Positions 1 to 41,010 of a stretch of DNA of 41,010 nucleotides are shown one piece after another. Both the position numbers and the translations under genes were made by a program. Origin of the DNA: a virus; UHGV virus genome UHGV-0278352. The stretch is one strand, 5' to 3'. The notes under the pieces were generated by a model. The model was not told the origin of the DNA. It was given only the letters and a program-made list of their open reading frames with translations, and searched no databases. Position 1 is the first letter of the stretch, and the number at the start of each line of letters is the position of its first letter.

Positions 1-41
1 AGGCTGATATGCTGGCTGAGGATTGGGTGTTTGCTGAGTAA
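1..41 (+). CDS. 3' end of an upstream gene (C-terminal fragment, ...ADMLAEDWVFAE*)
   Basis: Open frame from the window edge to TAA at 39-41; too short to classify. Confidence 0.25.
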   Translation, partial: ADMLAEDWVFAE

Positions 42-1265: not shown

Positions 1266-2240
1266 ATGATTGATAATGCGTACGCAAGAGGTCAGAAACT
1301 GTTATGTGGCGATTATAGCCAGTATACACCCACGGGGAAGTCTTATTTCACAAGAAAAGGCCGATGGTTCTCTGTACCAAGAAGGGGCGATATTGTCTAT
1401 TTCTATTATACTTCCCTGGGCCGTGTCGGGCATGTGGCTGCTGCTGTGGTAGTCGAAACAGATTATCAGAACCGGACATTTGAGTTTGTCACGGTTGAGG
1501 GAAACACATCTTCGGGAAATGCTGGGGACCGTAATGGAGGCTGTGTTGGTCGGCATACATATAAAGCATCTTTTGATGCAGTAGGAGGAACCAAAAAAAT
1601 CAGTGGTTTTGGTCGCCCCATGTACAGTATGGATACCTGCACAGTGGATGAATTTATTAACGTCCTGGAGGGAGAACTGGGATACATCGAAAAGGAAAGC
1701 AATAAAAACCTGGATAGTAAAACCGGTAATCCAGGAGATAAAAATTATACAAAGTATGGAAAGTGGTATGGTTATACCCCTGCATACTGGTGCCAGCAGT
1801 TTATATCATGGTGCGCCTACGAAGCCTGCCGACAGCACATGGAGAAAACACAGACCGGGTGGGAGAAACAGGCAGATGGAAGCTGGAAGTATTTACGGTA
1901 TGGCGCATACATCAAAGATGAATGGGAACTAATCAACACCGCAGCTGGAGCCCAGTGGTTTGTATTTGATGGTTCCGGGACAATGATAACGGGATGGTTC
2001 GGGTCAGATGAGCAGGGATGGTACTACATGAACCCGGATGATGGGGCAATGCTGGCGGCACAATGGTTTGAAGTCAAGGGCAAACATTATTATGCAACAA
2101 AGACCGGGGAAACAGCAAAGAATGTATATGTGAAATCAACGGCTTCAGGAGTATATTGTTGGGTGAATGGTGCGGGAGAATGGGAGAAAAAGTGGGATAC
2201 AACCATGCCGGACTTGCAAACATATGGCCTGGCAGAATAG
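1266..2240 (+). CDS. endolysin: N-terminal Cys/His peptidase-amidase domain (Amidase_5/CHAP-like) plus C-terminal choline-binding-type cell-wall-binding repeats
   Basis: N-terminus LLCGDYS ... RRGDIVYFYY..GRVGHVAAAV resembles the Cys...GDI..G.HxG pattern of the Pal/Amidase_5 and CHAP families. C-terminus carries three GW/Y-rich repeats (GSWKYLRYGAYIK, GWFGSDEQGWYYMNPDDGAMLAAQWFEVKGKHYY) typical of Cw_binding_1 repeats; adjacent to the holin. Confidence 0.8.
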   Translation: MIDNAYARGQKLLCGDYSQYTPTGKSYFTRKGRWFSVPRRGDIVYFYYTSLGRVGHVAAAVVVETDYQNRTFEFVTVEGNTSSGNAGDRNGGCVGRHTYKASFDAVGGTKKISGFGRPMYSMDTCTVDEFINVLEGELGYIEKESNKNLDSKTGNPGDKNYTKYGKWYGYTPAYWCQQFISWCAYEACRQHMEKTQTGWEKQADGSWKYLRYGAYIKDEWELINTAAGAQWFVFDGSGTMITGWFGSDEQGWYYMNPDDGAMLAAQWFEVKGKHYYATKTGETAKNVYVKSTASGVYCWVNGAGEWEKKWDTTMPDLQTYGLAE

Positions 2241-2249: not shown

Positions 2250-2621
2250 ATGACAGTAGGGGAGTTAATAGAAACCATCATCCGGTTAAGAGGACAACAA
2301 TATGGAGAGGACATCATGATGGGATGGCTCAATGAGATAGAGGGACAGGTAATTGATGAGATAGTGAACCGGGCAGAAGGATACGATGTGGAATTTAAAC
2401 CTTTGTCTTACGATTCGGATGCGGAAAAGAGACTGACCATCCCAGAGCGATTCCAGGATGTCTATATCAATTATATGCTTTCAAAGATTGATTATCATAA
2501 CCAGGAAACAGAACGGTATAACAATGATGTGATCATGTATAACAGCGCATATGATGCGTATGCGGCATGGTTTAGGCGCGAGAACCGGCCAAAGCGTGGC
2601 GCGTCATTCTCAGGGTTTTAG
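2250..2621 (+). CDS. hypothetical protein (123 aa)
   Basis: ORF track, RBS GGAGGAAG upstream, tightly packed in the late operon. Confidence 0.5.
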   Translation: MTVGELIETIIRLRGQQYGEDIMMGWLNEIEGQVIDEIVNRAEGYDVEFKPLSYDSDAEKRLTIPERFQDVYINYMLSKIDYHNQETERYNNDVIMYNSAYDAYAAWFRRENRPKRGASFSGF

Positions 2622-2630
2622 GAGGCTGCC

Positions 2631-4196
2631 ATGGGACGACTACCAATCCTTACTATGGCTCCGAAAGAAACCAGCCGCCAGATAGGGAACTTCTTGGGGC
2701 TGAACACAGGAGCTGTAATCAACGAAAACGAATTTGCAGATATGAAAAATATGACATCCGATGATTTCCCAGCCATTTCTACGCGGAAGCCCAGAGGGAA
2801 GATTATCAAGAACCTGACAACGCCTCACGGCCTGTTTTATAAAAACGGATTAGTCTACGTGGACGGTACTGAGCTGTATTACAAGGATAAAAAGATTGCA
2901 GATGTGACAGACACGGATAAACAGATAGTAGGATTGGGAGCCTACCTGGTTATTTTCCCGGATAAGATAATGTATAACACCTCATCAGAGGAACTGACCA
3001 GACTGGAAACGCAATGGTCACAAACATCCTCAGCCACATTTGCACAGACTACAAAGGGGTCAACCATGGTCAAAATCAGTTGTACAGGAATAGGAGTCTC
3101 CTTCCATCAATTTGATGGGGTAGAGATAACGGGATGCACAAATGATGCCTTTAACAAAACTACAGTGATACAGGAAATCGCCAACGATTACCTTGTAATT
3201 ATTGGTGATTTATCTGAATCATTCAGTCAGGAAAACGGACTTACTATCAGCCGAAAGGTTCCTGATATGGATTATATCTGCGAGAATGGAAACCGGCTCT
3301 GGGGATGCTCCAGCGAAAACCATGAAATATACGCAAGTAAGCTGGGCGATCCGGCCAACTGGAATGCGTTTGAAGGGATAAGCACAGATGCATATGCGGC
3401 TACCGTAGGAAGTGACGGGGACTTCACTGGCTGTCTGTCCCATCTGGGATATGTCCTGTTTTTCAAAGAGGATGCTATACATACTGTTATGGGTGATAAG
3501 CCGAGTAACTATCAGATTACAACCGTCTGCCCGGCCAGAGGGATTGCAAAAGGCTGTGAAGGTACAGCTTGTGTGGTGGATGAAACATTAATATATGCGG
3601 CCCGTAGCTGCATATGCAGCTATGACGGTGCCAACCCATCCAGCATATCGGATGCCATAGGAGACTACAGAGTAACCCAGGGAGTGGCTGGGCAGTACGA
3701 TGGCAAATATTATGCCTCTCTTGAACGGAATGGAGAATGGGCCATGTATGTGTTCGACCTGGAAAAAAACTTGTGGCACAAGGAGGACGGCTTACATGTA
3801 CGGTTTATGTCATACGGAGAAGGAGAACTATACTATATCGACATAGACGGAAATCTTTCAACTGTAGCCGGGAATCGGGAAGAGAAAATAAAGTGGATCC
3901 TTGAAAGCGGGGATATGTTGGACGGAAGTATTGAGTTTAAGTATCTGAAGCGCCTTCTCTTCAATATGAAATTGGAACCAGGGACAGAGGTGGATATCCT
4001 TCTTCAATATGATGATCAGAAGGAATGGGAGAAGGTATACACATATACGGCTGCCTCATATCGTACCTATGCGCTCAATGTGATACCGCACCGGTGCCAG
4101 AAATACCGGTACCGCCTGGAGGGAAGAGGGGCGGCCACATTGATTGCGATAGGCAAATATGTAGGTTATGGGAGTGAACGGTATGGCAGTATTTAA
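2631..4196 (+). CDS. putative tail/baseplate structural protein (521 aa, beta-rich)
   Basis: ORF track; position directly upstream of the fibre genes; no recognisable catalytic motif. Confidence 0.5.
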   Translation: MGRLPILTMAPKETSRQIGNFLGLNTGAVINENEFADMKNMTSDDFPAISTRKPRGKIIKNLTTPHGLFYKNGLVYVDGTELYYKDKKIADVTDTDKQIVGLGAYLVIFPDKIMYNTSSEELTRLETQWSQTSSATFAQTTKGSTMVKISCTGIGVSFHQFDGVEITGCTNDAFNKTTVIQEIANDYLVIIGDLSESFSQENGLTISRKVPDMDYICENGNRLWGCSSENHEIYASKLGDPANWNAFEGISTDAYAATVGSDGDFTGCLSHLGYVLFFKEDAIHTVMGDKPSNYQITTVCPARGIAKGCEGTACVVDETLIYAARSCICSYDGANPSSISDAIGDYRVTQGVAGQYDGKYYASLERNGEWAMYVFDLEKNLWHKEDGLHVRFMSYGEGELYYIDIDGNLSTVAGNREEKIKWILESGDMLDGSIEFKYLKRLLFNMKLEPGTEVDILLQYDDQKEWEKVYTYTAASYRTYALNVIPHRCQKYRYRLEGRGAATLIAIGKYVGYGSERYGSI

Positions 4197-6264: not shown

Positions 6265-7500
6265 ATGGCAGTAGCAAGTATTGTGGATTATTTAAAAAGT
6301 AAAGGACAGGACAGCTCCTATAACAATCGGAAAAACCTCGCAAACCAGTATGGAATAACTGGTTATACGGGAACCGCATCCCAGAATACAAACCTCCTTA
6401 AAGCAATGCAAGGGGGAGGTCAAAGCAGTCAGCCCCAACAGAATCAGGCAAATGGTAGCAATGCTGTGATAACACCGGTTACAAGTTCTTCCCCAGGCCA
6501 TCCCGCAACGGACTATCTGACCGGATATCAATACAATAAATATAGACCATCCGATAGAGTAAACAACTATGCGGATAAACTGGAAGATTTAGAAAATAAC
6601 AAGCCAGGAGACTTTGTAAGCAAATATGACGGACAGATAGACAGCATTGTTAATAGCATTCTGAACCGGGAACAGTTTGATCCAAACAGCGTGTATGATA
6701 CAGACCTGTACAAGAATTATCGGGAACAGTACATGCAGCAGGGCAATAAGGCCATGCGTGACACTATCGGTAATATATCAGGCATGACAGGCGGATATGG
6801 ATCTACATATGCCACGGCTGCCGGTCAGCAGGCGTATGATGGCTATTTGAGTCAGCTTGGGGATAAGACTATGGACATCTATGATAGAGTATATCAGCAG
6901 TATCTTAACGAAGGCCAGGAATTGTACAACCAGCTTGGCATGGTGAATAATCAGGACAATATTGATTATAGCAGATATCGGGACACAGTAGGAGATTATT
7001 ATAGCGACCTCAACTATTACGCGGGCCGTTACGATAGCTCATACGCGCAGGATTTCGGAGAATACCAGTACGGCCAGGATGCCCAGCGCTGGGCAGAGGA
7101 ATATGCATACCAGAAAACGCAGGATGCATTGGCGCAGTCTAATTGGCAGACACAGTTTGATTACCAGAAACAGCAGGATGCACTGGATTATGCTTTAAAA
7201 CAGCAGCAGCTGGCGGCGTCCAGAAGCAGAGGCGGGTCCGGTGGAGGGAGTAAAAAGACATCGAACACAAAGAGCCAGACACAGACAGTACAAAAGCAGG
7301 CCACTTTAGGAGGAAGATCTTATTTTATTTATGATACCAGACAGAAGCTGGAGAAGAATGCAAGCAATGCAGATGTAATGCAGGAATTATATGATAGAGG
7401 GGTATCAGATGATGAAGTAAAGAAAATAATGAAGGCCGCGGGCGGGGACTATGAAGAAGGACTTCGTGAAGCAATGGAATATGCAAATCAGAGGAGATAA
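6265..7500 (+). CDS. Q/N/Y/D-rich low-complexity protein (411 aa) with an N-terminal LysM-like segment (tentative)
   Basis: ORF track; long stretches such as YDSSYAQDFGEYQYGQDAQRWAEEYAYQKTQDALAQSNWQTQFDYQKQQ; stop lies 2 nt before the giant ORF start. Confidence 0.55.
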   Translation: MAVASIVDYLKSKGQDSSYNNRKNLANQYGITGYTGTASQNTNLLKAMQGGGQSSQPQQNQANGSNAVITPVTSSSPGHPATDYLTGYQYNKYRPSDRVNNYADKLEDLENNKPGDFVSKYDGQIDSIVNSILNREQFDPNSVYDTDLYKNYREQYMQQGNKAMRDTIGNISGMTGGYGSTYATAAGQQAYDGYLSQLGDKTMDIYDRVYQQYLNEGQELYNQLGMVNNQDNIDYSRYRDTVGDYYSDLNYYAGRYDSSYAQDFGEYQYGQDAQRWAEEYAYQKTQDALAQSNWQTQFDYQKQQDALDYALKQQQLAASRSRGGSGGGSKKTSNTKSQTQTVQKQATLGGRSYFIYDTRQKLEKNASNADVMQELYDRGVSDDEVKKIMKAAGGDYEEGLREAMEYANQRR

Positions 7501-7502: not shown

Positions 7503-10500
7503 ATGGCTGTCAAGAAAAATTATGATAAGTATAATATGTTTGCTTCATCTTCCAATACAGAGGAAGATGAAAAAGAAGATAATGTAAGTGTAGCTGCCCG
7601 GATTTTTGAAAGAAGAAGGCAGGCTTTAAAGCAGGATGGTGCCACATCTACAGAATCAGGGATGTCGCCGGCAGAGATATTCAAGAAAAGGAAAGAATAT
7701 TTGAAAACTGCAACACAAAGAACACCGGAGCAGACGGATATCCTTAGAGCAGACCGTGAGGAAGCGCGCAAATTATCACAGAAATTATCGGTCAGCCCGA
7801 ATAAAAAGCTGTACGCAACGCCAGACCAGCAGCCCCAAAATGCAGGCAGTCCATTTGCGCCTATACGCCAGACACCGGAACAAAAAAGCCAGGTTGAGGA
7901 ATATGCAAGGCGGTTGGCCGAGAAAACGAAGCAGGAAAAACAGGCAAAACAAAAGCGTGAACAGGAGCAGCAAGAAACGAAGAGAATTTTGGATAAGACA
8001 GGGTTCCAAGATGGGTACCAGTTCAAGCGATATGTTGATCTACCAAATGAACCTGATTTTGCAGAGACAATTGATAAGGCAAAAAACAATGATCCATCAT
8101 GGATGGAACGAATTCAATTCTGGAAAAATGAGGCCAATCCTGTTGAGGATGCATTTCGAGAAATCGAAAGCATGCAAAAAGGGCCGATATGGAATAGACA
8201 GCCTGCTAATAAAGAGGATATCCTTTCACGGACGGAAGGAATGGAAACCGAACATGCATCGTCTTTGCGTAAATACTCTATGCTAACCGATAACGAAAGG
8301 TATACATATGACTATGTATTTGAAAAGGCCGGGAGAGATGCAGCAAATAAATATCTCGCAACTTTACAAGATAAGATTAACCAGAGGAGTGCGTTGGATA
8401 GATATGAAAGAGCTGATAAATCTGTACCGAATGCATTGAAGATACCATATAACATCGGAAAGTCCGCTGAAATAGGAGCAGAGAGCGCCATAAGGGGAAT
8501 GGAATATCTACCGGACGCAATTCGAGGAAAACAGAAGGATTATAGTAATACAGAATCGGAATACTACCAAAGCTTATTAAATGGAAATGCGGGTGGGGCA
8601 GAGAGGTTTGCTTATAATACAGCATCAGTAATTGGAAATATGGCCCCTTCTATTGCGGCCGGAATGGTTTCGGGAGGGGCTGGTGCGACTGCTGGAGCAT
8701 CTGGAAAGATTGGAGCAATGGTTGCTAATGCCGCATCAAAAGGAACAGTAGGAATAGGAATACTATCGGCACAGACTGCGGGACAAACATACAGGCAGGA
8801 TATTATGGAGGGCAGGCCGGTTGAGGGTGCACAGATAAATGCTGCACTTACTGCTGCTGATGAATATGTAACAAACTGGCTGCTGGGAGGTATTGCAGCA
8901 TATGGCGGCGGAGCCGTGGGAAAAGCATTAAAGAACAGCAAGGTGGGTCAGGCTGCAAAGCAGGGCATATCAAATGCTTTGGCAAAGAATCCGGCAGTCC
9001 GTAGGGCGGTCCTTGGAGTTGCCAATTATGGAGGCGCTATGTTCTCAGAAGGAACCCAGGAAGCCGTTCAGGACCTGACAGAATCCATTCGGAAAAGTGC
9101 AATATACGGAGATAAACTTGACCTTGTTGGAGACCTCACAGATCCGCAAACCTGGGAGGATTTTGCATTAGGTGCAGTTACAGCAGGTATTTTGAATGCA
9201 CCAGGGACAATAGCAAACAACGTGGCAATCAATCAGTATGGAAAGAATCTGAATCCAGATTACCGCGATTACTCACAGATGGATATATCACCAGAGAACT
9301 ATACTTCACAGGACGATTACCGGGAAGCAGTAAATCTGAAAAAGCTGGCAGAAGAATATGCCGAAAGACAAAGACGGGGGGAATTTATTAAGAACCGTGA
9401 GAAGGCCGAGTATGATATGCGATTCCAGGAATTTCAGAATAATGTATCAGACCATAACAACGCCAAAAGTGATGATACAAACGCACAGAATGAACCACAT
9501 AGGCAAGAAGCGGTAAGAGACGAAGAATCCCAGGAGCAGACATATGAAGCTGAATATGGGCCGTATAATGAGCCGGTTGTAATGCCGGTTGAGGGAGAGA
9601 CTACGGGGAAAGATAGTTATATCCCAGAGACAAATAAAATAAACGTGGCAGAGGCTTATAGAACTCCATATGGAGAGAATGGAGGCAAGGCCCTGGAAGA
9701 AAACTACGATGGAAGTGTGGATATATCAACATATAACAGGGCCTTCGGACGTGTTTATGATGCGGGGAGATATGACGTTGATTTGTCTGTAGCGGAACAA
9801 TCAGCAATTGTATCTGTATTGACACCAGAGCAGGTAACAGCGGCATATAAAGCAGGAGCGCAAGATAGAAACAAAGAAATGCAGATTGACATTAAAACGG
9901 GCCTTCCGACAAACATGATTCAGGGAGAGACCAAAACGGGGGGGTTAGGGGCCGTCACGGAAAATGCTTCGGAGGCCCAGAGGACCGTTGCGGAACACGT
10001 CGGAAAAATGACTGGACTAAAAATAAACCTGGTAGATGATGTGGGAGAGGGAAATGCTACGGCTTCATACAAACATGGAGAAATCACATTGTCAGTCAAT
10101 GCTTCAGACTTTAATGGTGCATTATCACACGAACTTACCCATTTCATTAAGGATTATGCAAACGATGCCTATAATGTCTATACAAAGTATGCCGTACAGG
10201 CATTGATGGAATCCGATTCGGTGTCGTTGGAGGACCTGGTGGAGCAATATGAGACAGCATATAGTAAGGCAGGACAGGAAGCGAGTCGGGAAGAAATCAT
10301 GGACGATATTGTTGCGGATGCCACGCAAAAGTTTTTAAATGATTCTCAATTTGCAGAATCCATTGTTAAAAAAGATAGAACATTAGCCCAGAAAATAGTT
10401 GATTTCTTTACAGATGTTATAGACGCTTTAAAAAGCCTTATGAAAACAGGAAGCACCAGAAAAGCAGCAAAGGCACTGGAAGAAAAGGTAACATATTTTG

Positions 10501-13500
10501 AAGGATGCCGCGATATCTGGATGAATGCGGCTGGAGAGGCCAGTGAACGGTATAAATCAGGAGCAGAGCTTGTTGAAAATAGTCAGGCAGAAACAATGAC
10601 GAAGAGACAAGCACCAGGGGTAAGTGAGAAAACAGAACAGGGTATAAGATATCAGCTAGAGGATATTGACGATACCACAACCCAAAGGCGGATTGACGCA
10701 CTACTATATGAAAACCAGGCTTTGAAAGAAGCCAATGAGCTGCTGGAAAAACAGTTTAAAATAAGTCCAAAGAGTGCTGTAAGACAGCAGGATGTTAAAA
10801 AGGTGTCCCGCAATCTGCTAAAAGAATATAATAGCACATATAAACAGGAGACGTTAGAAAAGAATCTGGATAGGCTATATGGATATATAAGGGGGGCCGA
10901 ACATGTTGACAGTGCGGAATTGACAGAGGCGGCTACAAGTATAGCCAGAAGCGTGCTGAAACAGTCAAAACAGGTTGATACAGAACTCACACAGCAGTAT
11001 AAGGACCTGCGTAACCAGATCCGGAATACGAAAATTAATATTACTAACCAGGATAAAGCAGACTTAGCGTCAGCAGGAGGCTACAATGAATTTAGGAGAA
11101 GAAACTTCGGGCGTATGAAGCTGGGAAATGATGGCATATCCATTGACAGCTTTTACCAGGAGCTTTCAGCGCAGCACCCGGAACTGTTTTCTGAGGATGT
11201 AACGCATCCGGCAGACCAGCTTATGGCAATTGCTGATGTTCTCGACCAGACAGACGCACAGGTATCTAATCCATATCACGCCAATATGGATGAAATGGCA
11301 TATATGGTAGGGCAGGATATATTGCAGTCCTACTTTGATGTACGTCAGGCACAGCCTACTTTTGCGGACCGTAAAGCGGCAGAGGTACAGCGAGTGCAAC
11401 GGGAATACACTCGAAAGATGGCAGATTATAAAAAATCCCTTAAGCAGCAGTATATTAGTAAGCTGGAACAGGTTAGGAAGGAGAATGGTCAGAAAATACA
11501 GGAGCTATCGAAAGCCTATCGGAATCTGACTGCGGCACAGCAGAGGGAACAGGCGGAATTTTATAGAGAGAAGATGGATTCCCTCAGAAATGAAAAGAAT
11601 CAGGCACTGGCGGCTATGCAGCAAAGAAGTCGAGAACAGACAAAAATGATACGGGAAAGCCAGAGGGCCAGAGAAGCAAAGAAATCCATCATGAAGGAAA
11701 CGAAGGCCATGCAGAGCTGGCTGCTGAAACCAACTGATTCAAAGCATGTGCCAGAGGTTTTGAGGACTACTGTAGCAAGGTTCCTGGAAAATATTGATTT
11801 TTCATCCAATGAATTAAATAATGACGGTATTCCGACACAAAGAAGTCAGGCGTGGGATGATGCTCAAAAGGCATTTAGAAAGATAATTGAGAATGAGGGC
11901 GTGTGTGAAGATGGAGAAACCTTTATAGATATCGATCCGGATTTAGCCGTCAGGATGGAAGAACTGGTCAATAAAACGAAAGGAATAGATAAACTGGATA
12001 ACCTGGATGCATATACCCTGGAAGAACTGAAAAAGGTTGTTGTATCCATGAAAAAGGCAATTACAGAAGCAAATAGCCTTAAAAGCAATAGAAAATCAGG
12101 TCAACTGAGTATTCTTGCCGAAGGAGTGTTCCGTGATTTGGGAGATAGGAGGAACCGACAGGAATATGCAATGCTTGTAGGAGGAGCGGATAAGCTGCTC
12201 AATTATGATATGCTGGACCCGCAGACTATGTTTGGACAGATGGGGGATAATGTTAAATCAACATATGATTCCCTGAGAGATGGATTAAACAGAAAGACAG
12301 TGAAATTAAAAATTGCTCAGAACTACATTGAGGACCTTCTGAAAGAAAACAATGTATCCTTTAAAGATTTAAGAGAGTGGACAGGAAAAGATGCAAAACC
12401 GAAACGGTTTAAAACATCTTCTGGAACAATTGAACTCACGGTCTCAGAAGTAATGTCGCTGTATGAACTAAATAAACGTAATCAGGCGCGGGGACATATG
12501 TATGATAGAAATGGCGGTATTAAACATGCGCCAAGAGTCAGTAAACTACATTTTGAAAATGGAAAGCTTATCCCATCCAGAATTGATAAAAATTATTCTC
12601 CACTTAAGGTAAGCGAGGCCGATGTAGAGCTTATTGTCAATACACTTACTCCTGAACAAAAAGCACTGGCAGATGGTATGCAGCGTTTCATGGGAAATGA
12701 ATGTGCTGAGTGGGGGAATGAGGTAACCATGGAGATGTATGGCTATCAGAAATTCACTGCTGGTAACTACTTTCCTATTGTGACTGATAATAACTATATT
12801 CAGACAAAACAGGGGGATATGACAAAAAAGAAGAGTACCATTAAAAATATGGGAATCACAAAAAACACAATTAAGAATGCGAATAATCCAATTATAATCG
12901 AAGATATTTTTGATGTGTACACCAGACAGGTAGACCATATGAGTACCTATAATGCATATGTAATTCCTTTGTCGGATTTGAATAAGGTATTTAATTATAA
13001 GGATACGCGAAATGAGGCAAGCGGATCCAGCATAAAGCAGGAGATCGAGCGCACGTATGGGAAAGCGGGAAATGCTTACATTGATAAATTGCTTGATGAT
13101 ATAAATGGGAGTATTTATACTGAAAAAAGCATAGGGGACAAACTGCTTTCAAATATGAAAGCGGCGTCCGTCGCTGGAAATCTACGTGTTGCCATTCAGC
13201 AGCCAACAGCGTATGTCAGGGCCTCAATGGAAATATCACCGAAGTATCTGTCACGGGGAGCAATGACAATGACAAGAAAAGGACAGTGGGACCTTATATG
13301 CCAGTATGCGCCGATTGCGCAATGGAAAGACTGGGGATTCTATCGAATGGATACCAGCAGACAAATGAAGGATGTCATGTTTAACACGGATACCATGAAG
13401 CAGAGGTTTGTAAACAAGACAATGATATTAGCTGAAAAGGGGGATGAGTTAGCATGGAACAGGTTATGGAGGGCATGTGAGTTTGAGTGTCTGGATAAAC

Positions 13501-14954
13501 ACTCTGAACTAAAAGAAGGTACACAAGAATTCTATACAGAAGTAGGAAAAAGATTCAGCGAGATTGTTGACAAAACACAGGTGGTTGATTCCGTGCTTCA
13601 TCGAACCCAGATTATGAGAAGCAACCATGCGCTTGATAGACTGGCAACTAACTTCATGGCAGAACCATTGAAATCTTATAATATGCTCTATCGTGCAGCT
13701 GTAGATATCAAATTGAACAAGAAGGGGGCTAAAAGCCGTGCTGTACGCGCTGGAGCTGTGTTTATCTTAAACGGTGTATGCACGGCGGCGGCGGCCGCGG
13801 TTGTGGATGCCTTAAGGGATGATGATAGGGATAAAGATTACTGGGATAAGTATAGGGAGAGTCTGAAAGATAATATGTTAGACTCAATCAATATTATCAA
13901 TAATATTCCATGGGGAAAGGATGTGGTTTCGGCTGTAGTGCAAGGATACTCACCGACCAGGGCTGACTTATCTGGATTCCAAGATATCTATTATGCATTT
14001 AGCAGAATAGATAAATTAAAGGAAGGAGACAGCAAATATACCCCTCAGTCAGTGGCAATATACAGTGCAAGGATGGCAAGTAAACTTTTGGGCCTACCTG
14101 TTAATAGCATGGTACGAGATGCAGAGGCCATAGTTGACACTGCCATAAATGAATCGGGTAACGAATCAGCAGATTATAAATGGTTAAAACAGAAATATGC
14201 CATTGGTAGTAAAGAAAACCTGGGGCTATATGTTGGTATGATGATTGAAGCTTACCGCAACGATGATAATGAATTCCAGAAACAGATTAAAGAAGATTTA
14301 AATGCAGCAGGTATTGATAATGATAGCATATCTCAAAAAATCAAGACATTAATCAAGGGTGAACTTATATCAGACAAATCAGTGGACCCCAGAGTTGACG
14401 AAGCCGCAAAGGCGAAAATAAGTATGGACTTGAAATCATACGAAGCCGCCATAAATGAGCTGATGGAAGATGGATATGCAGGTAAACTGATAGGCTCTGC
14501 AATCACAGCGAGAATAAATCAGTTGAGTGGGGATGATGAGATAGACTGGGAGGCAGAGGCGGAGGTGGAACCGGATGAACTATATGGAGAGATACTGACA
14601 GGAAAGGCGGCGGAAGAGGATGATTGGAACCCATATACCTCCGGGGACATCATAACAGCGATAGAAATGATAGACAGGACCCCTCAATCGTTAGAGACAT
14701 TTAATCATATTGCATCAGCTATGGTTGACTACAAAGTGAAAGCTGGAAAGAAGGCAGAGGACGCTGCATCGACAATGAAGTCATCCATAACAAGAAAATA
14801 CAAAGCAGAATGGATTGAGGCATATCGGACCGGTAATAGAGCAGGATATGAAGAAATTCAAAGAAAATTAAACTATCTTAAGGTGAACGGAAAAACATTA
14901 TATAGCGGAAAAGAATACTCTTCCTGGAGGGAGGAAGCAAGAAAAAAGCAGTAA
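7503..14954 (+). CDS. giant 2483-aa phage protein with an HExxH (zincin-like) motif, a Gly/Ala-rich tape-measure-like segment and extended coiled coils; function unknown (candidate virion or ejected polyvalent protein, or atypical tape measure)
   Basis: Single uninterrupted ORF; SHELTHF at nt 10125-10145 (about aa 876); Gly/Ala-rich hydrophobic block around aa 395-560 (nt about 8690-9180); last gene of the late operon, followed by a strong terminator. Confidence 0.85.
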   Translation: MAVKKNYDKYNMFASSSNTEEDEKEDNVSVAARIFERRRQALKQDGATSTESGMSPAEIFKKRKEYLKTATQRTPEQTDILRADREEARKLSQKLSVSPNKKLYATPDQQPQNAGSPFAPIRQTPEQKSQVEEYARRLAEKTKQEKQAKQKREQEQQETKRILDKTGFQDGYQFKRYVDLPNEPDFAETIDKAKNNDPSWMERIQFWKNEANPVEDAFREIESMQKGPIWNRQPANKEDILSRTEGMETEHASSLRKYSMLTDNERYTYDYVFEKAGRDAANKYLATLQDKINQRSALDRYERADKSVPNALKIPYNIGKSAEIGAESAIRGMEYLPDAIRGKQKDYSNTESEYYQSLLNGNAGGAERFAYNTASVIGNMAPSIAAGMVSGGAGATAGASGKIGAMVANAASKGTVGIGILSAQTAGQTYRQDIMEGRPVEGAQINAALTAADEYVTNWLLGGIAAYGGGAVGKALKNSKVGQAAKQGISNALAKNPAVRRAVLGVANYGGAMFSEGTQEAVQDLTESIRKSAIYGDKLDLVGDLTDPQTWEDFALGAVTAGILNAPGTIANNVAINQYGKNLNPDYRDYSQMDISPENYTSQDDYREAVNLKKLAEEYAERQRRGEFIKNREKAEYDMRFQEFQNNVSDHNNAKSDDTNAQNEPHRQEAVRDEESQEQTYEAEYGPYNEPVVMPVEGETTGKDSYIPETNKINVAEAYRTPYGENGGKALEENYDGSVDISTYNRAFGRVYDAGRYDVDLSVAEQSAIVSVLTPEQVTAAYKAGAQDRNKEMQIDIKTGLPTNMIQGETKTGGLGAVTENASEAQRTVAEHVGKMTGLKINLVDDVGEGNATASYKHGEITLSVNASDFNGALSHELTHFIKDYANDAYNVYTKYAVQALMESDSVSLEDLVEQYETAYSKAGQEASREEIMDDIVADATQKFLNDSQFAESIVKKDRTLAQKIVDFFTDVIDALKSLMKTGSTRKAAKALEEKVTYFEGCRDIWMNAAGEASERYKSGAELVENSQAETMTKRQAPGVSEKTEQGIRYQLEDIDDTTTQRRIDALLYENQALKEANELLEKQFKISPKSAVRQQDVKKVSRNLLKEYNSTYKQETLEKNLDRLYGYIRGAEHVDSAELTEAATSIARSVLKQSKQVDTELTQQYKDLRNQIRNTKINITNQDKADLASAGGYNEFRRRNFGRMKLGNDGISIDSFYQELSAQHPELFSEDVTHPADQLMAIADVLDQTDAQVSNPYHANMDEMAYMVGQDILQSYFDVRQAQPTFADRKAAEVQRVQREYTRKMADYKKSLKQQYISKLEQVRKENGQKIQELSKAYRNLTAAQQREQAEFYREKMDSLRNEKNQALAAMQQRSREQTKMIRESQRAREAKKSIMKETKAMQSWLLKPTDSKHVPEVLRTTVARFLENIDFSSNELNNDGIPTQRSQAWDDAQKAFRKIIENEGVCEDGETFIDIDPDLAVRMEELVNKTKGIDKLDNLDAYTLEELKKVVVSMKKAITEANSLKSNRKSGQLSILAEGVFRDLGDRRNRQEYAMLVGGADKLLNYDMLDPQTMFGQMGDNVKSTYDSLRDGLNRKTVKLKIAQNYIEDLLKENNVSFKDLREWTGKDAKPKRFKTSSGTIELTVSEVMSLYELNKRNQARGHMYDRNGGIKHAPRVSKLHFENGKLIPSRIDKNYSPLKVSEADVELIVNTLTPEQKALADGMQRFMGNECAEWGNEVTMEMYGYQKFTAGNYFPIVTDNNYIQTKQGDMTKKKSTIKNMGITKNTIKNANNPIIIEDIFDVYTRQVDHMSTYNAYVIPLSDLNKVFNYKDTRNEASGSSIKQEIERTYGKAGNAYIDKLLDDINGSIYTEKSIGDKLLSNMKAASVAGNLRVAIQQPTAYVRASMEISPKYLSRGAMTMTRKGQWDLICQYAPIAQWKDWGFYRMDTSRQMKDVMFNTDTMKQRFVNKTMILAEKGDELAWNRLWRACEFECLDKHSELKEGTQEFYTEVGKRFSEIVDKTQVVDSVLHRTQIMRSNHALDRLATNFMAEPLKSYNMLYRAAVDIKLNKKGAKSRAVRAGAVFILNGVCTAAAAAVVDALRDDDRDKDYWDKYRESLKDNMLDSINIINNIPWGKDVVSAVVQGYSPTRADLSGFQDIYYAFSRIDKLKEGDSKYTPQSVAIYSARMASKLLGLPVNSMVRDAEAIVDTAINESGNESADYKWLKQKYAIGSKENLGLYVGMMIEAYRNDDNEFQKQIKEDLNAAGIDNDSISQKIKTLIKGELISDKSVDPRVDEAAKAKISMDLKSYEAAINELMEDGYAGKLIGSAITARINQLSGDDEIDWEAEAEVEPDELYGEILTGKAAEEDDWNPYTSGDIITAIEMIDRTPQSLETFNHIASAMVDYKVKAGKKAEDAASTMKSSITRKYKAEWIEAYRTGNRAGYEEIQRKLNYLKVNGKTLYSGKEYSSWREEARKKQ

Positions 14955-14960
14955 GATTAT

Positions 14961-14990
14961 GGCAGTGGAAACACTGCCATTTTTTGTAAT
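14961..14990 (+). terminator. rho-independent terminator of the late operon
   Basis: GGCAGTG-gaaaca-CACTGCC hairpin followed by TTTTTTGT. Confidence 0.8.
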
Positions 14991-15318: not shown

Positions 15319-15675
15319 ATGGAAAATGCAAAAGAATCAAAAGACATAGCGGAGTTACTTATACACCTGGGTATTAATAGGACATATGTAGGATATCATT
15401 ATATTGTTTATGGAATATCCCGTGCATCGGTGGATCCTAATTTGGTAACCTACATATCAAAGGGACTATATGTGGAGATAGCATCACATTTTCACACATC
15501 GACGGAATGCGTAGAACGAAATATAAGAACAGCAATTCATACGATATGGTCATATGGTGATAGGAAACTACTGAACGCAGTGTTTGGTTCAACGCTAAAG
15601 GAGAGGCCCTGTAATGGGGAATTTATAAGGGCCTTGTTGTGTTATGTCGAAAACAAGGACATGGTTGGAAAGTAA
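15319..15675 (+). CDS. standalone Spo0A C-terminal DNA-binding domain protein (Spo0A_C-like, no receiver domain)
   Basis: Aligns by eye with the B. subtilis Spo0A effector domain: [24 protein letters not shown] vs [55 protein letters not shown] vs [43 protein letters not shown] vs KPTNSEFIAMVA. RBS GGTGAGGAGG. Confidence 0.8.
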   Translation: [118 protein letters not shown]

Positions 15676-34029: not shown

Positions 34030-35925
34030 ATGGAATACGATAGGTTGGAAGGACAGGAAGGAAATGAACTGCCAATAGGAGATAAAGAAATAGCAGAGGC
34101 GTTTGAACGTCTGAGAAAATATAAGGATGGAAAATCATCTTTGGAAAAGCGGGTTGTGAATGCAGAGGAGTGGTGGAAAAATAACCATTGGGAGCGTTTC
34201 GCCAGTGATACCAGCAATGAGAATGACCCGAAACCAACAAGCGCATGGTTGTTTAACAGTATCATAAACAAACATGCTGATTTTCAAGATAATTTTCCCA
34301 GCCCGGCAATTCTTCCGAGAGAAAAGTCAGATGAGGAAACGGCTAAGATATTGTCGGAAGTTGTACCGGTGATACTGGAACAGAATCATTATGATAAGAC
34401 ATACAGCGAGTGCTCATGGGATAAGCCAAAGACGGGAACGGGCATATATGGGGTATTTTGGAATCCTGAGAAAGAAAACGGTTTGGGTGATATTGATATC
34501 AAATGTCAGGACATCATGAATATTTTTTGGGAACCGGGTATAGCTGACATACAGAAATCAAAAGAAGTATTTACAACGGAACTTGTGGACGCTGAGGAGC
34601 TAGAACAGTTGTATCCACAGACAGCCGGGAAAGCATCAAAGGTAGGTGAAGTAATCAAATCAGAATACATATATGAGGACAATATTGATACTTCTGATAA
34701 GGTGCAGGTAATTGATTGGTATTACAAAATAAAAAGACGGCTGGATAATGGAGGAATCAAGACGATTCTGCATTACTGCAAATTCATTCCAGGAACGGTC
34801 CTTTATGCCTCGGAGAATGATGATAAACTGGCTGAAACAGGATGGTATGAACATGGGAAATACCCATTTGTATTTGATGTAATGTTTCCCGATAAAGGAA
34901 CACCTGCTGGATTCGGATATCTTGATGTCATGATTAATCCGCAAGAGTATATAGATAAAATCGACCAGGTAATCCTAAAGGCTGCCGCATTAAACAGACC
35001 AAGGTTCTTTGCTTCCGATGGAGCGGGAATCAATGAGGATGAGCTGACCGATTTAAAGCGGGATATAGTACATGTTTCAGGAACCGTTGAGGATTCAAAA
35101 ATAAAGCCAATCACGCCGCCGCAATTATCAAATTATGTAATTGAGGCAAGGAATGCGAAAATAGAAGAATTAAAAGAGACATCAGGAAACCGGGATTTCT
35201 CGCAGGGTTCTACCTCATCTGGAGTCACTGCCGCGTCAGCAATCGCAGCTCTTCAGGAAGCCGGTTCGAAGTTGAGCAGGGATATGATTAAAAGCTCATA
35301 CACGGCTCATGCGGAAGTAATCACGATGACAATAGAACTTATAAGGCAGTTTTACGACTTGCCCAGATGCTTTAGGATTACGGAACCAAACGGCGCTTAC
35401 AACTATGTGCAGATTGATAATAGTGCACTGATGCAGCAGCCGATAAGCGGGATGGGTGAAGAGGTGTTTAACCGAAAGCCGGTATTTGACGTGAAGGTAT
35501 CCGCCCAGAAAGCAAGCCCATATAGCCGTATAGCAAATAATGAACTGGCAAAGGAGCTGTTTGGTATGGGGCTGTTCAATCCTCAGCTCGCAGACCAGGC
35601 CCTTGCAGTTGTTTCCATGATGGATTTTGACCGAAGAGACGAAGTAATGCAGAAAATCACTGAAAACGGGACAATGTATCAAAAACTACAGCAGATGTAC
35701 CAACTTATTCTGCAACTTGCTGAAATGGTATCAGATTTTTCGGGCAGACAGGACCTGCTCATGGCGGTTCAGAATATCATGGGGACCGGCCCAGCAATGA
35801 CAGCAGTAGACGTAAACCCAAAGAAAAAGATTACGACAAACAGTTTAGGTGAAATGATAAATAACGATGGAAGTATGGCTGGACAGGCAAGGGCCAGGAC
35901 AGCAACGTCAACGGAGGTCAGATAA
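34030..35925 (+). CDS. portal protein
   Basis: 631-aa protein immediately downstream of terL; size and position typical; no motif verified. Confidence 0.65.
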   Translation: MEYDRLEGQEGNELPIGDKEIAEAFERLRKYKDGKSSLEKRVVNAEEWWKNNHWERFASDTSNENDPKPTSAWLFNSIINKHADFQDNFPSPAILPREKSDEETAKILSEVVPVILEQNHYDKTYSECSWDKPKTGTGIYGVFWNPEKENGLGDIDIKCQDIMNIFWEPGIADIQKSKEVFTTELVDAEELEQLYPQTAGKASKVGEVIKSEYIYEDNIDTSDKVQVIDWYYKIKRRLDNGGIKTILHYCKFIPGTVLYASENDDKLAETGWYEHGKYPFVFDVMFPDKGTPAGFGYLDVMINPQEYIDKIDQVILKAAALNRPRFFASDGAGINEDELTDLKRDIVHVSGTVEDSKIKPITPPQLSNYVIEARNAKIEELKETSGNRDFSQGSTSSGVTAASAIAALQEAGSKLSRDMIKSSYTAHAEVITMTIELIRQFYDLPRCFRITEPNGAYNYVQIDNSALMQQPISGMGEEVFNRKPVFDVKVSAQKASPYSRIANNELAKELFGMGLFNPQLADQALAVVSMMDFDRRDEVMQKITENGTMYQKLQQMYQLILQLAEMVSDFSGRQDLLMAVQNIMGTGPAMTAVDVNPKKKITTNSLGEMINNDGSMAGQARARTATSTEVR

Positions 35926-36269
35926 TGACAGAGGTTAAAATTACAAATGTGCCAGGCTATTGCCGTGTGCAGATAAAAGGACATGCAGGATATGGATTTA
36001 ATCATCATTTACCAGTAGGAAATGATATTGTATGCGCAGCAATATCCATGTTGGGGCAGACAGTTGCGCAGAGAATCCTACAAATGTCAGAGGAGAAAAA
36101 GTTAGGAATTAAGGAGTTGACGGTGAAGGAGGCTCTCATAGATATCAGAGTGGTTCCGAAGGCGGAATACAGAAATGAGCTGGACGTTACAATAAAAACG
36201 ATTGTAACAGGGTTCGAATTGCTTGCAAAAGCTCATCCTTCATACATAAATCTGGGGTGGGAGATTTAA
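35925..36269 (+). CDS. prp: Prp-like cysteine protease (phage prohead/propeptide protease related to the ribosomal L27 processing protease)
   Basis: GHAGYG...GNDIVCAAISMLGQTV matches the Prp/YsxB His and Cys catalytic motifs (GHA....G.DIVCAAVS.L.QT). Confidence 0.8.
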   Translation: MTEVKITNVPGYCRVQIKGHAGYGFNHHLPVGNDIVCAAISMLGQTVAQRILQMSEEKKLGIKELTVKEALIDIRVVPKAEYRNELDVTIKTIVTGFELLAKAHPSYINLGWEI

Positions 36270-36298: not shown

Positions 36299-36365
36299 GC
36301 ACTCGGGAGAGACCGTGAATAGACACTCGGGAAAGACCGTGTTAGGACACTCGGGAGAGACCGTG
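36299..36365. repeat. three tandem 19-bp direct repeats (period 24 bp) upstream of the scaffold gene
   Basis: (G/A)CACTCGGGA(G/A)AGACCGTG at 36299, 36323 and 36347. Confidence 0.6.
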
Positions 36366-36380
36366 AGAAAGGAAAATGAA

Positions 36381-37286
36381 ATGAAACATGTTGAATTAAA
36401 CCTGACTCTTTTCGAAGGAGAAGGTGTAGGAGCAGATGGGGGAAGCGCGGTAGCAAGTGCGGAAGCTGATGTCATGAAGGCAGAGGCAAAAACAGAGGAA
36501 GGTGTTAATGGTATGGAATCTGTCGGGGAGGACTTGAAGAACCCGGCAGAAAAGGAAAAAACACCAGAAGAACGTCTGGAAGAATATAACCGTTTCAAAG
36601 CAGATTACAAGGATTTGTATGGTAAGGACGTGCAAAACGCGATTGGACGCAGGTATAAGGAAAACGAGCAGCTTAGACAGCAGATAGATGCGTATGGTCC
36701 ATTACTTAATACACTGTCTGCAAAATACGGATTAGAGAATCCAGATGTACAGATGCTTATGGAAGCGATTGACAAGGACAATTCCTTCTGGGAAGATGCT
36801 GCAATCAAAGAAGGGATGTCGGTTGAACAGTACAAAAAAATGAAGCAGTATGAAGCGGAACACAAGCAGATTATTGATGCAGCCAGGAAGGCGGAACAGG
36901 TTAGGCAGAAAGAGCAGACGTGGGAACGATGGAACCAGGAGGCAGAAGTGTGCGCCCAGAAGTTCCCACAGTTCAATATGGATGCAGAACTTAACAATTC
37001 GAATTTCATACGCCTGCTTGGGGCTGGTTTGGATGTTGAGAGCGCCTATAAAGCGGCGCATTTCGATGAACTGACCCAAGGTATCGCGAAACAGACGGAA
37101 CAGGAGACACGCAAGAAAGTGGCTGATAATATCCGCGCAGGAGCGGGAAGGCCATTGGAAAACGGGATAGGTGCCGGTGGCGCAAATAAAACGAAAACAA
37201 GCGCTTGGGATTTATCGAAGGATGAGTTTAGACAGTATCTGGAGAGATGTAAAAGCGGGGAACAGATTCAGACATTTGGAGCATAA
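36381..37286 (+). CDS. scaffolding protein (acidic, coiled-coil) with Prp-cleavable N-terminal motif
   Basis: ORF 36315..37286 with ATG 36381 (MKHVELNLTLFEG...); E/K-rich helical sequence; lies between prp and the capsid gene. Confidence 0.65.
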   Translation: MKHVELNLTLFEGEGVGADGGSAVASAEADVMKAEAKTEEGVNGMESVGEDLKNPAEKEKTPEERLEEYNRFKADYKDLYGKDVQNAIGRRYKENEQLRQQIDAYGPLLNTLSAKYGLENPDVQMLMEAIDKDNSFWEDAAIKEGMSVEQYKKMKQYEAEHKQIIDAARKAEQVRQKEQTWERWNQEAEVCAQKFPQFNMDAELNNSNFIRLLGAGLDVESAYKAAHFDELTQGIAKQTEQETRKKVADNIRAGAGRPLENGIGAGGANKTKTSAWDLSKDEFRQYLERCKSGEQIQTFGA

Positions 37287-37298: not shown

Positions 37299-38285
37299 AT
37301 GAAAAAAATTTTATTGAACTTAAGGTTGTTTGAGGGTGCACCAGCCAATACAACCACAGCGGGCGGAATGTCTGTTGAGATGAAAACATTTTATGATCGG
37401 ACATTGATTGAGAATGCAGAGCCAGAGCTGATACATGACCAGTGGGCGCAGACCAGGGATATACCAAAGAATGGAGGAAAAACCATTGAATTCAGAAAAT
37501 ATGACCAGCTTCCAAAAGCCCTGACCCCGTTGACAGAGGGTGTAACACCAGAAGGGCAGGAAATGAGGGTTACAAAGATTGAGGCCACAGTAAAGCAGTA
37601 TGGCGGCTTCGTGGCTTTATCAGACCTACTCATTCTGACGGCACTTGATAACAACATTGTGGAAGCGAGTGAGCTAATAGGTTCCCAGGCAGGAAGAACG
37701 CTGGATACAATTTCCCGTGAGGTGATGAATGCCGGTACAAATGTACAATACGCAGAGGGACAGGTATCTTCCAGAAGCGCCATAACCAAAGATATGAAGT
37801 TGACGGTAAGGGCTGTAAAAATGGCCGTTCGTTTTCTTAAAAAGCAGAATGCAAAGAGAATCGGAGGATATTACTATGGAATCATTAATCAGGATTGTTC
37901 CTTTGATCTGACCGATGATGATAGATTCATCGAGGCCGTAAAATATAAGAACCCGGAAAGGATATACAATGGTGAAATTGGTCAGATTGAGGGGGTAAGG
38001 TTTGTGGAAACCACTGAGGCAAAAATTTTCCAAGGAGCCGGGGCCGAAGGGATTGATGTATATTCCACCCTTATTATTGCAGAAAACGCATACGCGACCA
38101 CTAAAATTAAAGGCGGGGGCCTGGAAACGATTATAAAGCAGCTTGGTTCCGCTGGTACAGCAGATCCATTGGACCAGCGCGCCACAGTAGGATGGAAAGC
38201 ACTTAAGGTTACGGAGATACTGTCACAGCAGTACATGGTACGTATTGAGACTGCATCCACATTTAATGATAACGTAGCAAATTAG
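37299..38285 (+). CDS. major capsid protein with N-terminal LLNLRLFEG propeptide motif
   Basis: 328 aa; follows the scaffold gene; N-terminal motif shared with the scaffold. Confidence 0.8.
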   Translation: MKKILLNLRLFEGAPANTTTAGGMSVEMKTFYDRTLIENAEPELIHDQWAQTRDIPKNGGKTIEFRKYDQLPKALTPLTEGVTPEGQEMRVTKIEATVKQYGGFVALSDLLILTALDNNIVEASELIGSQAGRTLDTISREVMNAGTNVQYAEGQVSSRSAITKDMKLTVRAVKMAVRFLKKQNAKRIGGYYYGIINQDCSFDLTDDDRFIEAVKYKNPERIYNGEIGQIEGVRFVETTEAKIFQGAGAEGIDVYSTLIIAENAYATTKIKGGGLETIIKQLGSAGTADPLDQRATVGWKALKVTEILSQQYMVRIETASTFNDNVAN

Positions 38286-40210: not shown

Positions 40211-40669
40211 TCATTTTGTGCTGAAGGCATATAGGTTCGTAAGGTTTGGAACTTGATTGTTATAACCAATAAATCGTACGGTATCACCTTTACGTACAGC
40301 AAACCATATAGGCATTGACGAATTGACTGTGACATCATTATTGACCCAAAAAATATTTATCCCATTTATAAGTACATTACAACCCTGAGCTGAGCTGTTA
40401 AAACCAATGGAGCCACAAACTATACAATCCTCTGTAGCTGTCCAACTGGTACCGTTAGCAAACCCATCTTTAATTTTTTTGCTGGTATCTATGTATGGTA
40501 AATTGCTATTTTCGCTAATAAGGAGCTGTCCTTGAAACAGCAGAAAGAGAGGATTTATGAAATTTTTAGAAGCCTTAAATAATATGAAAAAGGGAATTCC
40601 AATGAAGCTTCCGTCCTGGGGTGGATTTTGGTGTTGGGACACGAATGAGGAAACCATCGTCATGTACAC
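40211..40669 (-). CDS. questionable minus-strand ORF (152 aa, GTG start, N-terminal hydrophobic segment); conflicts with the DUF2829 gene start
   Basis: ORF track only; overlaps the 5' 113 nt of the plus-strand DUF2829 gene; no SD; may be spurious or a reverse-oriented membrane/exclusion gene. Confidence 0.25.
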   Translation of the reverse strand: MYMTMVSSFVSQHQNPPQDGSFIGIPFFILFKASKNFINPLFLLFQGQLLISENSNLPYIDTSKKIKDGFANGTSWTATEDCIVCGSIGFNSSAQGCNVLINGINIFWVNNDVTVNSSMPIWFAVRKGDTVRFIGYNNQVPNLTNLYAFSTK

Positions 40670-41010
40670 AAAGGATAATCAGCGGCTTGATATACGCGAA
40701 ACACAAAGGGTGGAATATACACTGAGGAATGTGATGTCGGATGAATGGGAAGTCGCCAATGGGGAAAATACACCCATCTTGGGCGGAACTGCCGCCTTTG
40801 GTTTTGGCGATGCTGTTAAATACATGAAACGCGGATTAAAAGTTAAAAGACAGGGATGGAACGGGAAAAATCAGCATATCGAACTGGCAGCTGATATCAG
40901 CTATAAAAATGCAGATGGCGAGATTGTAAACTGCTTGCATGATGCCATTGGAAACAAAGCCATTGCGTTTGTTGGCACGAGCGGCGTACAGATGGGATGG
41001 CTGGCAAGCC
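40557..41010 (+). CDS. tandem-repeat DUF2829 protein (Tad2-like candidate anti-Thoeris sponge), 3'-truncated by the window end
   Basis: MKFLEALNNMKKGIPMKLPSW and FGFGDAVKYMKRGLKVKRQGWNGK each match the DUF2829 N-terminal signature (F.EAL..(L/M)K.G.K(V/M).R..W); RBS AGAGAGG; no stop before 41010. Confidence 0.65.
   Translation, partial: MKFLEALNNMKKGIPMKLPSWGGFWCWDTNEETIVMYTKDNQRLDIRETQRVEYTLRNVMSDEWEVANGENTPILGGTAAFGFGDAVKYMKRGLKVKRQGWNGKNQHIELAADISYKNADGEIVNCLHDAIGNKAIAFVGTSGVQMGWLAS

Follow-up and report, generated by a model that had tools for sequence, protein, structure and literature searches.

The viral genome UHGV-0278352 (41,010 nucleotides (nt); this whole stretch is referred to as the window) contains one giant open reading frame (ORF), which lies at 7503..14954 on the + strand, starts with ATG and encodes 2483 amino acids (aa) followed by a stop codon. 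On balance, we consider it likely that its product is a giant internal virion protein (an 'ejection' or 'pilot' protein) and that the phage encoding it is a temperate one of podovirus type infecting Enterocloster. This reading is based on the podovirus-like genome, which lacks a tape measure protein (TMP), a tube and a sheath, and on the giant gene being coupled to the late operon via its Shine-Dalgarno sequence, with a terminator-like structure following it. That the protein is packaged is suggested by analogy, as gp47 of phage phi24B was found in virions and gp50 of phage N4 is ejected. A preliminary description, made from the sequence alone, had recorded a single uninterrupted 7.45 kb ORF, and coordinates, strand and length all agree.

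The giant gene closes the late operon of a podovirus-like phage

Joining the end of the window to its start restores an ORF of 164 aa for a Tad2-like protein, identical to that of a related contig, and thus the window is a closed 41,010-bp genome. The phage is temperate, has an Enterocloster host and carries a podovirus-type gene set with terS, terL, a portal, a Prp protease, a scaffold-like protein and a major capsid protein, as well as genes for an endolysin-like protein that carries choline-binding repeats, for two fibres bearing S74 chaperone domains, for a Spo0A_C protein and for a serine integrase. The ORF list, Pfam and PHROG revealed neither a tube, sheath or chaperone gene nor another gene of TMP size in the window, the second-largest ORF being the 631-aa portal. 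The doubt that had been cast on a tape-measure role in the preliminary description is thus borne out, all the more as no TMP family matched the giant protein. The endolysin-like gene (1266-2240) and the two fibre genes (4168-6088) lie upstream of the giant ORF, so its placement after lysis and fibre genes was correctly described, and downstream only the Spo0A_C gene and the integrase follow.

The stop codon of the upstream gene, which encodes 411 aa, is located at 7498-7500, leaving a gap of 2 nt to the giant ORF. A strong Shine-Dalgarno sequence, GAGGAG (7491..7496, +), lies 6 nt ahead of the ATG and thus within the 3' end of the upstream gene, so that translation of the giant ORF may be coupled to that of its neighbour. 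A terminator-like hairpin with a T-run (14959..14980, +) directly 3' of the stop codon closes the late operon.

The HExxH domain is related to subdomain C1 of N4 gp50

The giant protein contains an HExxH domain of the zincin-like metallopeptidase type (aa 715-1022; 9645..10568, +), as delimited by AlphaFold and by hhalign alignment to subdomain C1 of N4 gp50. Its HELTH motif (aa 876-880; 10128..10142, +) is the sole HExxH of the protein, with about 0.013 being expected by chance from composition, and HExxH is kept in 230 of 248 family domains. An alignment of 35 sequences, the most distant of which are 25% identical, shows no exchange at H876, E877, H880, Y890 or D939. The zincin-type motif recognised earlier is hence conserved in the family and probably catalytic; the longer string LSHELTHF is present as described, only its start was 3 nt off, as it spans 10122-10145 and does not begin at 10125. 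In a downstream helix the sequence D-I-V-A-D (aa 935-939; 10305..10319, +), with D/E935 nearly invariant and D939 invariant, is a candidate for the region providing the putative third metal ligand.

In a first AlphaFold model (aa 330-1045) the overall predicted local distance difference test (pLDDT) score is 58, and it is about 80 over aa ~715-950. The modelled domain consists of four short strands and one helix, followed by the HExxH helix (541-556 in the model) and further helices, an order that agrees with the zincin core as described by Iyer et al. 2017. The core fold gave no recognisable match to solved zincins or curated models. The isolated domain did not match Peptidase_M78 at E <= 5, nor did any other Pfam peptidase model match it, and the earlier comparison with ImmA-like (ImmA/IrrE) peptidases is therefore not supported.

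The C-terminal domain of N4 gp50 is composed of C1, a subdomain with HExxH, and C2, which has ~110 kDa, is mostly helical and has no structural homologue (PMC13434306); Iyer et al. 2017 assigned C1 to the zincin-like peptidases of polyvalent proteins. We compared alignments of 14 schitovirus polymerases with the family alignments by hhalign. The family HExxH domain aligned to N4 C1 with a probability of 94.1%, a P value of 1.3e-7 and a score of 59.0, as compared to 10.9 +/- 1.4 for column-shuffled templates (maximum 13.5) and 25.5 for the reversed template, and with the HExxH columns deleted the match still had a P value of 2.4e-4. In the reciprocal HMMER search with a hidden Markov model of N4 C1, 66 of 263 members scored above the best reversed decoy, at the correct position and with up to 25.9 bits. 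Judged from these profile comparisons, the HExxH domain is homologous to N4 gp50 subdomain C1.

An N-terminal block resembles the lipid-binding domain of N4 gp50

The protein begins with a charged, E/K/Q-rich region (aa 1-255; 7503..8267, +), in which E, K, Q, R and D make up 40-50% of aa 1-250, followed by an N-terminal domain with a Gly/Ala-rich hydrophobic block (aa 256-600; 8268..9302, +), modelled with low AlphaFold confidence. G and A account for 34-40% of aa 351-500, and the broader conserved block covers ~aa 370-590, a composition in agreement with the charged low-complexity N-terminus and Gly/Ala-rich block of the preliminary description. Within this domain the block 'SEGTQEAVQ...GAVTAGILNAPG' (aa 506-585; 9018..9257, +) aligned to aa 378-456 of the N4 gp50 N-terminal domain over 78 columns, with an hhalign probability of 92.8%, a P value of 4e-7 and a score of 62.6 (shuffled controls 10.9 +/- 1.6, reversed template 23.8). 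A lower alignment threshold added a colinear pairing of 'YRQDIMEGRPVEGAQ' (aa 430-444) with 'YQQHIKDGMSPEQAR' of N4. It is thus probable that the N-terminal block is homologous to the N4 gp50 N-terminal domain.

The latter domain binds lipids, has predicted membrane-spanning helices upstream of the aligned part (aa 224-278), inserts into nanodiscs and has been proposed to anchor gp50 at the inner membrane; each capsid holds about 4 copies of gp50, which leaves after all other ejection proteins (PMC13434306). The most Gly/Ala-rich stretch of the giant protein (aa ~377-425) is found at the position equivalent to these membrane-spanning helices. For the Gly/Ala-rich block, previously likened to tape-measure or membrane-insertion segments, correspondence to the lipid-binding domain at the N-terminus of N4 gp50 is a better explanation than a tape-measure-like segment.

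The family is a chassis with a cassette slot

A word-indexed search yielded 418 homologues of the giant protein, and an exhaustive search with aa 1045-2240 yielded 5053 clusters at 50% identity with E <= 1e-3, 3172 of them with E <= 1e-30; among the best 150 matches to this region the length is mostly 2200-3600 aa. Among 50,697 phage records searched by megablast and tblastn, only two short unannotated faecal fragments matched the giant ORF. Full-length homologues that are 98-75% identical occur in Enterocloster prophages, and the matches in species-representative genomes are nearly all from Clostridia (Lachnospiraceae, Oscillospiraceae, Ruminococcaceae, Christensenellales, Butyrivibrio). The giant gene constitutes about 18% of each phage genome in the family. 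We know of no characterised member.

Pairwise comparison revealed that the homologues share two parts, aa ~60-1030 and aa ~1045-2340, and that most of them have extra sequence in between. Across 241 members this insert ranges from about 0 to 1274 aa (median 205), and the junction has only 10 aa in the window protein and its closest relatives. Here, the family cassette slot is a flexible linker (aa 1023-1067; 10569..10703, +), with pLDDT <50 at the ends of both AlphaFold models. The inserts harbour PBECR3 together with ART-PolyVal (P0063), PBECR5 (P0087, P0116 and P0119), MuF_C (P0116 and P0120) and LPD3 (P0003; 32.4 bits at a cut-off of 27), i.e. domains that are counted among the signature domains of the polyvalent proteins of Iyer et al. 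2017. The polyvalent idea put forward earlier thus holds at the family level. The window protein itself matched neither LPD3, PBECR3, PBECR5, ART-PolyVal and MuF_C nor any other Pfam polyvalent model and, as it has none of the cassette domains and a junction of 10 aa, is a chassis with an empty slot; by this comparison it is a cargo-less family member, and the description 'fused to other modules' does not apply to it.

The N-terminal domain can be swapped as well. P0005 is 96-100% identical to the window protein from aa ~600 onward and only 15-36% in aa 201-600, so that its N-terminal domain seems to have been exchanged recently; the variant now present is 33% identical to that of P0110. One family member has a C-terminal Peptidase_M23 domain, a domain typical of virion-borne cell-wall hydrolases.

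The cassette boundaries carry a common junction motif

All cassette boundaries carry the motif [DG]-[IVT]-[RK]-[FY]-[SQ]-L-[KE]-[DE]-x-[DE]. The window protein has one copy, RYQL (aa 1049-1052; 10647..10658, +), which conforms to [RK][FY][SQ]L followed by acidic residues and lies in the linker that is disordered in both models. Per 1000 aa the motif occurs 3.17 times in the insert region, 0.26 times in the N-terminal part and 0.04 times in the C-terminal part, with 0.17 expected from composition, so that the inserts are about 12-fold richer in it than the N-terminal part and about 80-fold richer than the C-terminal part. The number of copies increases with insert length, and the motif directly precedes PBECR5, ART and the C-terminal module. 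As the modules that follow it have unrelated folds, the motif probably does not belong to the folds themselves but serves as a processing site or marks a recombination joint, and it may be a cleavage site. The motif was not found in N4 gp50 or in the giant protein of phi24B.

The C-terminal module is mostly α-helical

The conserved C-terminal module (aa 1068-2340; 10704..14522, +) is mostly α-helical according to AlphaFold. The model of aa 1045-2240 (pLDDT 77, predicted template modelling score (pTM) 0.64) consists mostly of helices with one small β region and contains a long charged helical hairpin (aa 1289-1408; 11367..11726, +; model helices 245-296 and 300-364). In addition to this hairpin of ~120 aa (aa ~1289-1408), AlphaFold predicts a shorter one at aa ~603-659, and the remainder of the protein is globular and mostly α-helical, so that of the 'very long coiled coils' described earlier two helical hairpins remain and the rest has to be replaced by a globular helical module. 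The sole strongly hydrophobic helix, which is conserved (aa ~2076-2104) and followed by R-D-D-D (aa 2076-2108 in total; 13728..13826, +), features invariant R2105 and D2106 and nearly invariant D2107 and D2108, and there are many invariant polar residues in the module. The C-terminal tail (aa 2341-2483; 14523..14951, +) is conserved only in the Lachnospiraceae clade.

No match to the C-terminal module was found by Foldseek in the PDB, nor by sequence in Pfam, NCBIfam or the PDB, and among named families it is related to phrog_22978 alone, where it matches coordinates 2285-3278 of the 3513-position profile. These coordinates as well as the like position, size and helical nature had raised the idea that the module corresponds to N4 C2. 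We rejected this equation, as hhalign and HMMER scored the pair no higher than the controls and the N4 protein is assigned to another PHROG.

A conserved gene block accompanies the giant gene

In the window the giant gene is preceded, in this order, by genes for 123 aa and 521 aa, the fibre genes and the 411-aa gene, and in a distant clade genes for 162, 608, 96 and 494 aa precede it (pairwise identity 23-33%), those for 162, 608 and 494 aa being the counterparts of the 123-aa, 521-aa and 411-aa genes. The 123-aa and 521-aa genes (2250..4196, +), the latter belonging to phrog_511, 'internal virion protein', are part of the same conserved block, which is kept beside the giant gene even in clades that are about 30% identical. 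The 411-aa gene directly upstream (6265..7500, +) had been suggested as a partner, which is supported by its synteny as a conserved neighbour even at ~30% identity; it is 32-51% identical to the counterpart gene in distant family members. The N-terminal ~45 aa of its product are common to phage endolysin and peptidase families (DUF3597). Homology of the 411-aa protein to N4 gp51 or to the 421-aa protein of phi24B was considered and discarded, as BLAST detected no similarity.

Other genes of the phage and related loci

The Tad2-like gene (40557..41010 continuing at 1..41; 164 aa) encodes a Thoeris anti-defence Tad2-like domain (PF11195, E 6e-12). A Tad2-like gene is also located beside the giant-gene block in the distant relatives L004 and L031. 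In the window a 152-aa ORF on the - strand (40211..40669) overlaps the start of the Tad2-like gene, and the region 40211-40556 lies between a 513-aa gene and the Tad2-like gene.

The endolysin-like gene (1266..2240; 324 aa) encodes choline-binding or glucan-binding repeats at aa ~170-306; it is situated halfway through the late operon, ahead of the genes for ejection and fibre proteins, and not at the operon end. The two fibre genes with S74 chaperone domains follow at 4168-6088. Between the giant ORF and the attachment site with the integrase there is a gene for a stand-alone C-terminal (DNA-binding) domain of Spo0A (15319..15675; PF08769, E 1.5e-29), by which the phage may interfere with sporulation control of the host.

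The gene for the Prp cysteine protease (35925..36269; PF04327, E 2.5e-14) is located between the portal and the scaffold-like genes, its neighbours being the genes of the scaffold-like protein and the major capsid protein (36315..37286 and 37299..38285). The N-terminus of the major capsid protein reads MKKILLNLRLFEG, the scaffold-like protein contains MKHVELNLTLFEG, and both resemble the L27/Prp cleavage motif. Based on these motifs Prp probably processes the head proteins of the phage. A Prp site at the N-terminus of the giant protein ('YNMFASSS') was considered as well and rejected, as the Prp-type sites of capsid and scaffold-like protein read LNL[RT]LFEG; moreover, the variation of this N-terminus among homologues counts against such a site.

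An integrated copy with 86% identity is found in a 303-kb contig, its giant protein being P0005 (NCBI: E. bolteae). The late genes end with the giant gene in this copy as well, and just a small ORF and the Spo0A_C gene separate it from the prophage end at smpB. In one public record P0005 is called an 'OmpH family outer membrane protein', an annotation that is probably spurious and stems from the charged helical regions.

Discussion

The giant protein has several features in common with N4 gp50 (3500 aa). Both are the largest and last-encoded proteins of a podovirus ejection-gene block, and in both the HExxH domain is followed by a mostly helical module of ~1100-1300 aa that has no structural relative. 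They differ in that N4 gp50 contains a T7-like single-subunit RNA polymerase domain (phrog_2206 match), whereas the window protein has no phrog_2206 match, and in that the variable cargo is located after the HExxH domain in the window family, but before it in N4. Furthermore, the phage of the window is temperate and has a Gram-positive host. A size order with the largest protein last is seen in gp14-gp15-gp16 of T7, in gp52-gp51-gp50 of N4 and in the block of the window, where the 411-aa gene makes the increase approximate. The proposed role of T7 gp14-gp15-gp16 is the same, i.e. to cross the envelope and reach the inner membrane, although no sequence or fold similarity of T7 gp16 to the window protein was found. 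T7 gp16 has a lytic transglycosylase domain rather than an HExxH domain.

Like the phage of the window, the Stx phage phi24B is a temperate podovirus in which the giant gene (gp47, vb_24B_48, 2807 aa) comes last and is preceded by a gene for ~420 aa (421 aa in phi24B). gp47 is a polyvalent protein that is abundant in virions according to proteomics, is invisible in the cryo-electron microscopy reconstruction and has been proposed to be an ejection protein (bioRxiv 10.64898/2026.04.10.717836). The HExxH profile of the window family weakly matches the two HExxH regions of gp47 (26 bits; independent E-values 7e-6 and 2e-4, with just two sequences in the database). gp47 differs in having LPD1, LPD5 and LPD38 and a Gram-negative host, and no other similarity was detectable.

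Large proteins encoded in late operons with a zincin-like peptidase as hub, as found here, are also known from the polyvalent proteins of Iyer et al. 2017 (P1 DarB and DdrB, MuF-toxin fusions); in the accessible part of that paper the N- and C-terminal modules of the chassis are not among the LPD set of domains. The window ORF encodes a very large protein among virion genes with portal-terminase packaging (terS, terL, portal, major capsid protein), a hallmark of polyvalent proteins. Two or more effector domains, another hallmark, are present in homologues, and the window protein has the HExxH domain only. Closer relatives may have been noticed before: phi1 and phi4 of C. clostridioforme LM41, predicted podovirus prophages of ~41 kb from a sister species, have an 8 kb ORF with weak LPD3 similarity at their 3' ends and were detected as released particles in the LM41 culture supernatant; the particles visible there by transmission electron microscopy (TEM) were mostly podovirus-like, and most of these were attributed to phi1 by the authors (PMC11318856). 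The description of the terminal ORFs of LM41 fits homologues such as P0025 (2677 aa, LPD3-like insert), a likeness by description; the ORF of the window has 7.45 kb instead of 8 kb and lacks an LPD3 cassette.

Based on these findings we infer ejection, membrane insertion, peptidase activity and a cleavage site for the giant protein. Synthesis would come at the end of late-operon expression, alongside the conserved proteins of 123, 521 and 411 aa, and a few copies would be packed in the capsid, to leave it by way of the short tail either before the DNA or at the same time. The Gly/Ala-rich N-terminal domain may then bind to or insert into the cytoplasmic membrane, as the N-terminal domain of N4 gp50 does, while the rest of the chain would reach the cytoplasm. 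The HExxH domain would be a metallopeptidase that most likely serves to cut the chain where the junction motif [RK][FY][SQ]L lies, which in relatives would free the cassettes, e.g. the ADP-ribosyltransferase, the PBECR RNases or LPD3. That the cassettes are delivered into the cell is suggested by their nature, as toxin-type domains acting in the cytoplasm only make sense if delivered. A role has still to be assigned to the C-terminal module and may lie in capsid targeting, channel formation or DNA handling. As the slot is empty, the contribution of the window protein would be to genome delivery or establishment and not to a specific anti-defence function.

Several observations weigh against this scheme. 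Searches of Pfam, NCBIfam and PDB sequences with the whole protein, seven segments and a 35-sequence profile gave nothing significant. The N-terminal match to N4 is marginal in HMMER, where three members score above the best decoy, and the Gly/Ala block contains no classical transmembrane helix by hydropathy analysis. The C-terminal module, which makes up half of the protein, shows no relation to N4 C2 (hhalign probability 0.9%, score 29.6, shuffled 22.2 +/- 4.3), recombination or docking could account for the junction motif as well as cleavage, and the presumed packaging of the giant protein rests on context and analogy.

The alternative that survives best, although we regard it as unlikely, is that the protein is primarily an injected anti-defence effector whose HExxH domain degrades restriction or other defence proteins of the host. 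The family carries the conflict-type domains ART-PolyVal, PBECR RNases and LPD3, Iyer et al. 2017 consider effector roles for such peptidases, and the same phage has the Tad2-like anti-Thoeris gene. However, the window protein is devoid of an effector cassette, no target is known, the HExxH domain matches neither ImmA/IrrE nor another peptidase family, and almost every member retains this domain and the modules on both sides of it irrespective of its cassette, more in line with a chassis or processing function than with a weapon against particular hosts.

It is improbable that the giant protein is an external or tail-associated structural protein, e.g. a tail needle or extension or a wall-penetrating device. 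Although its gene neighbours the fibre genes, one relative ends in Peptidase_M23 and the 411-aa partner has an N-terminal endolysin-type module, the protein is mostly α-helical without a beta-helix or fibre-like region in the AlphaFold models, toxin domains that act in the cytoplasm are found mid-chain in relatives, and the HExxH domain and, probably, the N-terminal block are homologous to an ejected protein of N4. Equally improbable is an accessory gene at the prophage end (a 'moron') whose product is not packaged and acts in the lysogen or the producing cell, e.g. in superinfection exclusion or as a toxin. The position beside the attachment site at the prophage end is typical for morons and the neighbouring Spo0A_C gene looks accessory, but the giant gene lacks a separate promoter, only 2 nt separate it from the late gene upstream, which also contains its Shine-Dalgarno sequence, and it is always linked to the same virion-type genes; in a distant clade holin and amidase genes of the same module are located 3' of it. 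Finally, a TMP of a long-tailed phage, as size and the Gly/Ala-rich hydrophobic block might suggest, is next to impossible, given that tube, sheath, chaperone and distal tail genes are missing, no TMP model in Pfam or PHROG matches, related prophages were released as particles and the particles visible by TEM were mostly podovirus-like (PMC11318856), and the block aligns to the N-terminal domain of N4 gp50.

Giant injected proteins provide a route for DNA and first-strike enzymes across the cell envelope in several short-tailed phages. To our knowledge, studies exist of N4 gp50 and, less extensively, of phi24B gp47 only, both from phages of Gram-negative hosts. Proteins of the kind described here are already known and related 8-kb ORFs have been flagged in print (PMC11318856); new are the anatomy of chassis and slot, the motif at the junctions, the family size and the link of the HExxH domain and, probably, of the N-terminal block to N4 gp50. 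Taking an ejection protein as the preferred reading, we tentatively speculate that the family might be a modular protein-injection chassis of thousands of prophage lineages of gut Clostridia, an evolutionary relative of the N4 gp50 scaffold made up of an N-terminal domain for membrane insertion, an HExxH peptidase acting on its own chain, a new helical module of ~1300 aa and a single cargo slot, with a [RK][FY][SQ]L peptidase site at each cassette boundary, and that the N4 polymerase might be one cargo-loaded version of an ancient podovirus ejection protein, of which the window protein would be the empty chassis.

Being free of cargo, the window protein shows which parts make up the invariant delivery machinery, and the slot and the junction motif predict where relatives load their toxins and possibly where these are cut free. 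The family, with its 5053 clusters at 50% identity, comes nearly entirely from Clostridia of animal guts, and the link to N4 gp50 makes the findings on N4, i.e. lipid binding and beads-on-a-string ejection, testable in Gram-positive gut phages.

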